From Escherichia coli (lineage in GTDB: Bacteria; Pseudomonadota; Gammaproteobacteria; Enterobacterales; Enterobacteriaceae): a stretch of 64,000 bases of DNA. The notes under the pieces are model-generated. The model saw only the letters and a program-made list of their open reading frames with translations. It was not told where the DNA came from and did not search any database. The position numbers were made by a program, and so were the translations under genes. Of the stretch, positions 54,619-55,187 are shown in pieces; the stretch's first letter is position 1, and every line of letters starts with the position of its first letter. The DNA lies in the NCBI RefSeq assembly GCF_003334355.1, contig NZ_QOWP01000004.1. One strand, written 5' to 3'.

Positions 54619-55187
54619 GTCGATCCCCTGACAAGGAAATGTGAACCATGGACATCAACGCGTCATAAATGTTTACGCAAGTGCACAATGCACCCTTTCC
54701 ACTATCAACAAGGAGGAGCAGAAACTGTGTAAATCGTACAATGGTAAGACTTATCAAAAATACAGGTTAATTTTGGTATTTAAACCTTTTTTACTTGTTA
54801 GTATGATACAAAGGCTTTCAAAAAAGCTGGGAAATTCAACAACTCTTGGAAATTATGGACTTTGTCCCGCGGCTTTAATCTGACGGCCGCGTTCCTTTTT
54901 TGACTCAATTATTGACCCCTTCTCTACGCAACTTCAGTTCCCACCACCAACTTTGCGGCAGTTTCATAGGATGAATGTCTAAAAGAATAATGGTGAGCGA
55001 TAAGAAAACGACTGAATAACTGCACATTTTCGCTCGAAAGCTTCCTGTCAGATCCATAGCGAATCAAGTGCTGAATGTCACAGTATCGAACAGAAAACAG
55101 TGACGATCTAACCCTTCAAGAATATTCTACGATTGTTCTGTTTAGGAAAAGCAAGGCGGGAAGTCGGGAGATAAGTCATTGATAAAG

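Follow-up and report, generated by a model that had tools for sequence, protein, structure and literature searches.

The yodB-serU spacer of Escherichia coli: probably a convergent transcript-end zone with a Rho stop for serU and an unannotated small RNA gene

We analyzed the spacer that separates yodB from the tRNA gene serU in a 64,000-nucleotide stretch of Escherichia coli DNA (contig NZ_QOWP01000004.1 of assembly GCF_003334355.1; this whole stretch is hereafter called the window). The results indicate that the spacer is probably a zone of convergent transcript ends, built from three modules, in which a Rho stop for serU on the minus strand faces an unannotated small RNA gene on the plus strand. 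The two transcripts would converge with their ends 44 nt apart, that of serU near 54945 and that of the small RNA at an intrinsic terminator at 54901. Direct support comes from the spacer coordinates, a mapped RNA 3′ end, bicyclomycin-sensitive read-through, the presence of an RNA from this intergenic region in Hfq chimeras, homology to a family of elements with covarying helices, and the distribution of the spacer among genomes. The small RNA would most likely be a low-level, Hfq-dependent base-pairing regulator.

Extent, composition and distribution of the spacer

The yodB open reading frame (ORF) ends at 54618 and serU starts at 55188; the spacer therefore covers 54619-55187 and measures 569 bp, which makes exact the figure of about 570 bp of unassigned sequence given in an earlier note on this DNA. 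The window is collinear with K-12 (window coordinate = NC_000913.3 coordinate - 1,988,280). The spacer of MG1655 (NC_000913.3, 2042899-2043467) is also 569 bp long and contains zero annotated features, and in RefSeq nothing is annotated under the spacer in the listed genomes, the single exception being one insertion of the insertion sequence (IS) IS1. The spacer of the window differs from that of MG1655 at two positions. At 54830, within the open part of the small RNA, G is replaced by C, and at 54916 C is replaced by A. Its spacer is identical to that of strains EC2, E275a and EC16, and is thus K-12-like but not that of MG1655.

The earlier note had described the region as moderately AT-rich and without a convincing ORF, and both descriptions hold. 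The G+C fraction is 0.37-0.45 in 200-nt windows versus about 0.5 in the flanking genes, the longest ORF encodes 80 aa, and no spacer ORF gave a match in PHROGs or NCBIfam. The 80-aa ORF crosses the breakpoint between K-12-like and B2-type strains at 54741 and is therefore not conserved.

The spacer was detected in 5422 of the 5426 complete E. coli genomes searched and was full-length in 3065 of them. About 2300 genomes match only from 54741 (query position 123) onwards, the type being strain FDAARGOS_1297 (locus L002). In E. albertii, recognisable remnants of the spacer are limited to 54741-54790 and 55058-55187. The spacer is thus composite and young, with three modules of different origin; the region 54741-55187 is older than the insertion of yodB, and part of it is also older than the split between E. 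coli and E. albertii. According to the earlier note, its suggestions would fail if the spacer were conserved base for base in E. coli genomes without islands and gave no transcript. The spacer is indeed present in nearly all genomes, but transcripts do end inside it. The features are as follows.

54619-54740, plus strand: tail of the yodB cassette, probable yodB 3′ untranslated region (UTR); from the B2 breakpoint, genome matches and folding
54741-54812, plus strand: upstream box and promoter-like region; from the promoter scan and family comparison
54813-54901, plus strand: predicted small RNA of about 88 nt; from Term-seq, the covariance model and an Hfq chimera entry whose strand is inferred
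54910-55187, minus strand: serU 3′ trailer and Rho-dependent termination zone; from bicyclomycin data and C/G counts
55188-55277, minus strand: serU, tRNA-Ser(CGA); from ARAGORN and Rfam
54910-55249, no strand assigned: block of 340 nt copied into lambda-like phages; from phage comparison, about 97% identity

Transcription of serU is terminated by Rho inside the spacer

ARAGORN places serU, encoding tRNA-Ser(CGA), at 55188-55277 on the minus strand, where Rfam also gives a tRNA hit. No intrinsic terminator was found on either strand of the spacer by a simple terminator scan, and the minus-strand trailer of serU lacks one and folds no better than random sequence (z = +1.3). In the Term-seq data of Adams et al. 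2021 (PMC7815308) the sole minus-strand peak in the spacer region is the mature 3′ end of serU, 2043468(-). The same study (PMC7815308, Supplementary file 2) reports a Rho termination region with its best position at 2043225(-), which corresponds to window position 54945 and has a Rho score of 39.0 (p = 2e-241). In the corresponding DirectRNA-seq data, 7705 reads were counted upstream and 24 downstream of this position without bicyclomycin, and 9053 and 1099 with bicyclomycin (PMC7815308); antisense reads downstream of 54945 thus increased about 45-fold in the presence of the drug.

The trailer contains two C-rich, G-poor stretches, 55187-55128 and 55007-54968. Trailer nucleotides 1-40 contain 14 C and 4 G (ratio 3.5, C-minus-G excess +10) and nucleotides 181-220 contain 11 C and 2 G (ratio 5.5, excess +9), while the 95th and 99th percentiles of the C-minus-G excess per 40 nt across the window are +7 and +10, respectively. 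Hence, as at Rho-dependent terminators, read-through increases with bicyclomycin and the RNA upstream of the stop is C-rich, G-poor and untranslated. Together these data establish that serU transcription is ended by Rho inside the spacer, around 54945. This explains why the earlier note could recognise no terminator for serU.

Mechanistically, RNA polymerase leaving serU would continue into the C-rich, G-poor trailer, where Rho would load and halt transcription within about 240 nt, around 54945, and the mature tRNA 3′ end at 55188 would arise by processing. The Rho stop would keep the very strong transcription of serU from running antisense into the small RNA gene and yodB. This part of the spacer is ordinary biology that is already contained in public tables, though we found no description of the specific case of serU.

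Two further 3′ ends in the same Term-seq tables (PMC7815308) lie close to this region. One is an orphan 3′ end at window 56455 (K-12 2044735, plus strand), located at a hairpin that follows asnT by about 110 nt; the other, observed in LB at an optical density (OD) of 0.4, is internal to mtfA, about 70 nt into the gene (window 55441, K-12 2043721, plus strand).

A compact small RNA-like gene on the plus strand

The region 54741-54909 has, on the plus strand, the layout of a compact small RNA gene. An upstream box (AAGACTTATC..AGGTTAATTT, within 54741-54812) is accompanied by a promoter-like site detected by the promoter scan, with a -35 element TTTAAA at 54779-54784, a 17-nt spacer and a -10 element TATGAT at 54802-54807. 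If this TTTAAA-17-TATGAT site at 54779-54807 is used, transcription is predicted to begin near 54813-54815, which would give an RNA about 88 nt long. In the predicted RNA, 54813-54818 pairs with 54823-54828 to form a 5′ hairpin, followed by a single-stranded middle (54829-54856) and by a GGAC-UUU-GUCC hairpin (GGACUUUGUCC) at 54857-54867. The terminator consists of CGCGGC (54868-54873) paired with GCCGCG (54886-54891) across a 12-nt loop and then UUCCUUUUUU up to 54901; read by eye, 54857-54901 is GGAC-TTT-GTCC, CGCGGC, the 12-nt loop, GCCGCG and TTCCTTTTTT. Owing to its 12-nt loop, the terminator at 54868-54901 was overlooked by the simple scan and by the earlier note. A tandem duplication of 18 nt (TTCAAAAAAGCTGGGAAA / TTCAACAACTCTTGGAAA, 78% identical; repeat family D6) at 54817-54852 extends over the hairpin at the 5′ end and the open middle. 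This succession of a 5′ hairpin, an unpaired middle and a terminator hairpin with a U tail is the typical build of Hfq-binding regulators.

The 3′ end of this RNA has been mapped. In the tables of Adams et al. 2021 (PMC7815308), 2043181(+) is given as an "orphan" Term-seq 3′ end; it corresponds to window position 54901, the last U of the terminator tract. It was supported by about 2240 reads in LB at OD 2.0 and about 1860 in M63, and was unseen in LB at OD 0.4 (PMC7815308). Expression appears to take place mainly in stationary phase and minimal medium. The stem 54868-54873/54886-54891 with an RNA end on the last U, 54901, constitutes the terminator hairpin plus U tail expected of small RNAs that bind Hfq.

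Evidence suggestive of Hfq association comes from RIL-seq, in which interacting RNAs are ligated and sequenced. The feature "yodB.serU.IGR", in which IGR denotes the intergenic region, is present in Table S1 of Bar et al. 2021 (PMC8175672), derived from the Hfq RIL-seq data of Melamed 2016. It was found in 39 chimeric fragments with one partner in exponential phase and in 33 fragments with two partners in stationary phase, and its U-tract length is given as 6 (PMC8175672). The SIC score in this table equals S - 1/k, with S denoting the proportion of chimeras that have the RNA in second place and k counting its partners. From the scores in the two phases, 0 and 0.5, S comes to 1 in both cases, and yodB.serU.IGR was therefore always second in its chimeras. 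Second place in a chimera is typical of small RNAs. The naming order and the U-tract point to the plus strand for this feature. Among the rows listed in the RIL-seq supplement for enteropathogenic E. coli (EPEC), a B2 strain without yodB, there was no entry for the spacer. The values of the exponential-phase partner (15 interactions, SIC 0.094324) coincide with the row of ompF, which would thus be that partner. From these data we infer that the RNA of about 88 nt is a low-abundance, Hfq-dependent base-pairing small RNA with a regulatory function and targets.

The small RNA belongs to a family carried by prophages and plasmids

A search for distant relatives among phages and plasmids showed that phage vB_EcoS-683R6 also has the hairpin module, as do IncF plasmids from Salmonella and Citrobacter. 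Inspection of these matches revealed that the homology spans the entire cassette, i.e. the promoter boxes, the 5′ hairpin, a variable open middle and the terminator. The elements of the family are an upstream box AAGACTTATC..AAGGTTAATTT, a -35 element TTTAAACC, a 17-nt spacer, a -10 element TAGTAT, TAATAT or TATGAT, and the invariant GGACUUUGUCC. The boxes and the 17-nt spacing are common to the prophage copies and the Citrobacter plasmid copy, whereas the -35 element is not conserved in the Salmonella plasmid copy. As type copies of this unnamed family we take those of phage vB_EcoS-683R6 and of SerU-LTIIb, an LT-IIb prophage that is itself integrated in serU and has a copy of the cassette. 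The 683R6 version was present at a coverage of at least 80% in 296 of the 5426 E. coli genomes, and a conserved 16-mer occurs in more than 100 IMG/VR proviral contigs.

A covariance model (R1) was built from 19 prophage and plasmid copies and contained no E. coli spacer copy. It nevertheless matched 54807-54903 over its full length (model positions 1-89) with 62.1 bits and an E-value of 3.3e-14; this was the only significant match in the 64 kb, the next one having an E-value of 0.46. In the helices of the model 96.4% of cells were paired, against 40-55% with slid partners. Compensatory changes include those at pair 14-23 (9 sequences with U-A, 6 with C-G) and, in the terminator, at pair 66-80 (14 with C-G, 5 with U-A). 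The 5′ hairpin is maintained by differing sequences (GUCCCC/GGGGGC, GUCUCC/GGAGAC and GUUCCC/GGGAAC), and in the spacer copy it is formed by GGCUUU/AAAGCU. The alignment showed no ORF conserved across the family; an ORF of 21 codons in some phage copies is not kept family-wide. The open middle of the spacer copy is about 20 nt longer than in its relatives, which fits the 18-nt tandem duplication. Because of this duplication the E. coli copy probably has a seed, and with it targets, different from those of its relatives, as far as can be judged from its sequence.

Prophage copies are located between the Q/methylase/tRNA-Thr-Gly region and the holin genes, in antisense orientation to the late operon. 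The window copy is chromosomal, flanked by yodB and serU, and phage genes are absent from its vicinity; the plasmid copies are likewise found outside the Q/tRNA-to-holin context. We therefore take the prophage location as the typical context of the family and not as a defining one. Comparison of the serU loci of about 80 species, collected via MtfA, showed the cassette beside serU only in E. coli. By homology the E. coli copy would be a domesticated copy of a mobile small RNA cassette, transferred presumably from a mobile element to the chromosome.

Searches with the 4227 Rfam models gave nothing at 54741-54909 with E-values up to 1, and the phage copy was also without a hit. In the spacer region the Rfam hits were confined to the tRNA itself and to sub-threshold matches that overlap it, such as sX4 (25.6 bits versus a gathering score of 70). 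The most conserved sequence of the family is present in no searchable paper, and the link of the small RNA to prophages and plasmids appears to be undescribed. A separate weak, sub-threshold Rfam hit resembling STnc100 (22.9 bits, E-value 0.07) was obtained directly beside a phage copy of the cassette, on the opposite strand (locus L094, 1629-1825, minus strand).

Thus the earlier suggestion that the spacer might contain an unannotated small RNA is supported by a promoter-like site, a structured body of about 88 nt, an intrinsic terminator, a mapped 3′ end, Hfq chimeras and a prophage/plasmid family. Several observations nevertheless weigh against a functional small RNA gene, the main weaknesses being the putative start site, the low abundance and the small number of partners. 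The RNA is scarce: the Term-seq tables give it about 2000 reads and DsrA about 600,000. RIL-seq shows one or two partners, and on account of this small number the published classifier score was 0.01-0.05, below the 0.1 cut-off that the authors used for small RNAs. The strand of the RIL-seq feature depends on naming order and U-tract. The best duplex of the small RNA with ompF mRNA has an energy of -26.5 kcal/mol, and 72 of 100 dinucleotide shuffles performed at least as well. Covariation is limited to three pairs among closely related sequences. Furthermore, E. albertii has lost the RNA body and the terminator, and the element is therefore dispensable in this sister species. Finally, with an independent promoter that is putative, the 3′ end at 54901 could belong wholly to a yodB 3′ UTR of 283 nt, a point taken up in the next section.

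The yodB cassette and its relation to the plus-strand terminator

The gene yodB is part of a cassette of about 995 bp (53746-54740) that begins directly after the zinT stop codon. B2-type E. coli (L002) lacks yodB; an unrelated sequence of 222 nt replaces 53746-54740, and homology restarts exactly at 54741. E. albertii is also without yodB. The G+C content of the cassette, about 40%, suggests a horizontal origin, and in a published study of ST410 the presence or absence of yodB served as a clone marker. The first module of the spacer, 54619-54740, is the end of this insertion cassette and is the probable 3′ UTR of yodB; it has no terminator of its own and folds no better than shuffled sequences. 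Within this tail, at 54710-54732, a strong Shine-Dalgarno-like sequence (AAGGAGGAG) is followed 10 nt later by GTG-TAA, i.e. a start codon directly followed by a stop codon.

The absence of any terminator between the yodB stop codon and 54868 implies that yodB transcripts must reach the plus-strand hairpin. The hairpin might then be the terminator of yodB only, at the end of a 3′ UTR of about 283 nt, with the Hfq-bound pieces being decay or processing products and the promoter-like site a chance occurrence in AT-rich DNA. The low abundance of the RNA would fit this explanation, as would the promoter scan, since the two promoter-like sites in the scanned region are close to the chance expectation (mean 1.5). 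We consider it unlikely, however, on the following grounds. The cassette is conserved, together with its -35 and -10 boxes 17 nt apart, in copies from prophages and plasmids, and these copies lack yodB. In addition, B2 strains devoid of yodB keep 54762-54903 identical, and a K-12-like and a B2 genome do not differ in 54764-54902. Moreover, the left edge of the family homology (about 54745) coincides with the breakpoint of the yodB cassette (54741), which indicates that yodB was inserted beside a pre-existing unit. The two explanations are also not exclusive, as one terminator can serve both transcripts. In the convergent arrangement that we favor, the terminator at 54901 would end the small RNA and, in strains that have yodB, would also end read-through from this gene.

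Phage integration and capture of host DNA at serU

The 3′ terminal 61-62 nt of serU (55188-55249) form the core of the attachment (att) site of serU-integrating prophages, of which the Stx1d prophage (PMC9729726) is an example in the literature. In the serU lysogen strain 113, which has espJ and tccP, an intact spacer precedes the 61-62 nt of the serU 3′ end, beyond which phage DNA begins; at the other prophage end the integrase gene begins 28 nt after an intact serU. A pseudo-tRNA in the sequence KU052038 is part of the evidence for this core. The earlier note had suggested that the spacer might contain a decayed att site, detectable as a direct repeat of the serU 3′ end. No second copy of this end was found in the 64-kb window, either with both 24-25-mers allowing up to three mismatches or by repeat finding, and real serU lysogens keep the spacer intact outside the att core. 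The window thus has no decayed att site in the usual sense.

Phage sequences related to the spacer do exist. The lambda-like phages ev099, mEp332 and PhiR70_1 contain 54910-55249, i.e. 278 nt of trailer plus the 62 nt of the serU 3′ end, at about 97% identity, and the phage-type junction of this block is present in 542 of the 5426 E. coli genomes (about 10%). In strain 214-4 the block is located inside a prophage that lies next to bioA-ybhB and not at serU. There it is about 1.8 kb away from the end of this prophage and has an AraC-type gene on one side and tail-fibre genes on the other. The left edge of the block, 54910, lies just past the small RNA terminator. We read the block as a fossil attL-type junction, in which the host flank was captured from a former serU lysogen. 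A different explanation, an identity of 340 nt between attP and attB that would supply serU with its own trailer upon integration, was rejected, because the block in strain 214-4 is internal to the prophage and the integrase junction of strain 113 has no such block. In the phages the captured block adjoins the AraC-type regulator gene and IS remnants.

The serU flank is clearly an active zone of integration and rearrangement, with prophages or islands present in some strains. This raises the question whether the spacer as a whole is a decayed prophage or att remnant without present function, the conservation of which reflects low divergence within E. coli and hitch-hiking with an invariant tRNA gene. 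That the cassette family otherwise resides on mobile elements, that the flank is a hot spot for insertion and rearrangement, and that the E. albertii version is partly deleted would all fit such a remnant. We regard it as improbable. Apart from the lack of a repeated serU 3′ end, trailer and serU are contiguous and E. albertii shares the trailer, which is thereby identified as ancestral chromosome and not phage DNA. Variation is also uneven: in an alignment of 11 E. coli spacer copies, 5 of 139 nt were variable in 54764-54902 and 1 of 134 nt in 55054-55187, these being two functional blocks, as against 18 of 151 nt in the region between them (54903-55053). Finally, transcripts end at defined positions in the spacer.

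Comparison of other loci provided additional examples of variation at this site. The order serU-mtfA-asnT was kept in the 12 loci checked with ARAGORN, and among the loci of about 80 species only E. coli and E. albertii have related DNA 3′ of serU. In strain UTME-3 (locus L003, 6110-7363) an IS3 element interrupts the spacer after 109 nt and borders on prophage tail genes, and the remaining spacer is gone from the genome. In cryptic Escherichia clades and E. whittamii (loci L007, L008 and L009, about 3470-3817) shiA and amn, on the minus strand, and an asn tRNA gene are found directly downstream of serU in place of zinT/yodB, a rearrangement that has its breakpoint at the serU 3′ end. Escherichia sp. 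MOD1-EC7003 (locus L005, 43-3570) has a different island after serU, which encodes a 423-aa protein that, judging by its motifs, may resemble the CD-NTase kind of nucleotidyltransferase of defence systems. In Salmonella enterica subsp. diarizonae (locus L047, 1521-3823) about 2.3 kb downstream of serU contain no ORF of at least 80 aa.

Conservation of the region adjacent to serU

The most conserved part of the spacer is 55054-55187, and E. albertii is about 84-90% identical over 55058-55187. The conservation of these 134 nt exceeds the obvious need of a Rho loading site and is partly unexplained. A stable 3′ external transcribed spacer (3′ETS) RNA acting as a small RNA sponge like 3′ETS-leuZ, in place of a mere Rho loading site that can be degenerate, would account for this conservation, and tRNA trailers do occur in the same RIL-seq tables (leuZ.yecA.IGR, asnW.yeeN.IGR); yet it is highly improbable, as the only minus-strand 3′ end that Term-seq shows in the trailer is that of the mature tRNA, the RIL-seq table yields no "serU.yodB.IGR" entry, the trailer folds no better than shuffles, and a stable Hfq-bound trailer fragment with a defined 3′ end, as known for 3′ETS-leuZ, was detected neither among the Term-seq peaks nor in the RIL-seq table.

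Discussion

No genome has been searched for small RNAs as thoroughly as that of E. coli K-12. Up to now the RNA considered here has been recorded in supplementary tables alone, as an "orphan 3′ end" and as an intergenic entry with a low score. Its link to a prophage and plasmid family would provide a concrete case of a mobile regulatory RNA that became fixed in a core genome, and a family with a conserved promoter, covarying helices and a variable seed, of which hundreds of prophage copies are now available for testing. At the same time it is Rho and not a hairpin terminator that insulates serU, which is both a tRNA gene with very strong transcription and a site of phage integration, from neighbouring genes. 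Going further, we tentatively propose, as a possibility and not as our expectation, that the E. coli core genome, K-12 included, has beside serU an unnamed, species-specific gene for an Hfq-dependent small RNA that was domesticated from a widespread, undescribed cassette family of lambdoid prophages and IncF plasmids, and that the 18-nt duplication re-tooled its seed to core targets, ompF being the first candidate.

The captured block in phages resembles the products of aberrant excision of the lambda gal/bio type, since in the phages 278 nt of host sequence adjoin the att core and the copy is located on the tail-fibre side, as expected of attL. It differs from these in that the piece is only 340 nt long, lies inside phages at the lambda attachment region and has spread to about 10% of E. 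coli genomes.

With respect to its termination, serU shares with other tRNA genes that have Rho-dependent ends (tyrT, Kupper et al. 1978; genome-wide bicyclomycin studies) the lack of an intrinsic terminator, a C-rich, G-poor trailer and a large increase in read-through with bicyclomycin. It differs from cases of the tyrT type in that the Rho stop is 44 nt from the 3′ end of a convergent small RNA gene and in that its trailer is unusually well conserved.

The small RNA itself is most similar in kind to the Hfq-dependent small RNAs encoded near the lysis genes of lambdoid prophages (PasA, PasC and PasD of EPEC, STnc100, AgvB and AsxR), with which it has in common a predicted length of about 90 nt, an intrinsic terminator with a U tail and, if the strand is as indicated, presence in Hfq RIL-seq data. 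As for these RNAs, relatives of the window RNA are located directly upstream of lambdoid holin/lysozyme genes, often with several copies and variants per genome. According to a preprint (10.64898/2026.05.13.724894), the 3′ end of PasA is conserved while its 5′ and seed parts vary, a pattern also seen in the present family. Identity with PasA itself was rejected: the esterase-holin spacer of NC_011356 (phage YYZ-2008), which serves as reference PasA locus in that preprint, is without GGACYTTGTCC, CCGCGG and TTTAAACC, and blastn gave only chance-level matches (E-value 0.08 or higher). The window RNA has no Rfam hit to STnc100, AgvB, AsxR or Esr41, and unlike the named prophage small RNAs the prophage copies of its family are antisense to the late operon. 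The window copy is fixed in the core genome of E. coli (5422 of 5426 genomes) and is thus not restricted to pathogens.

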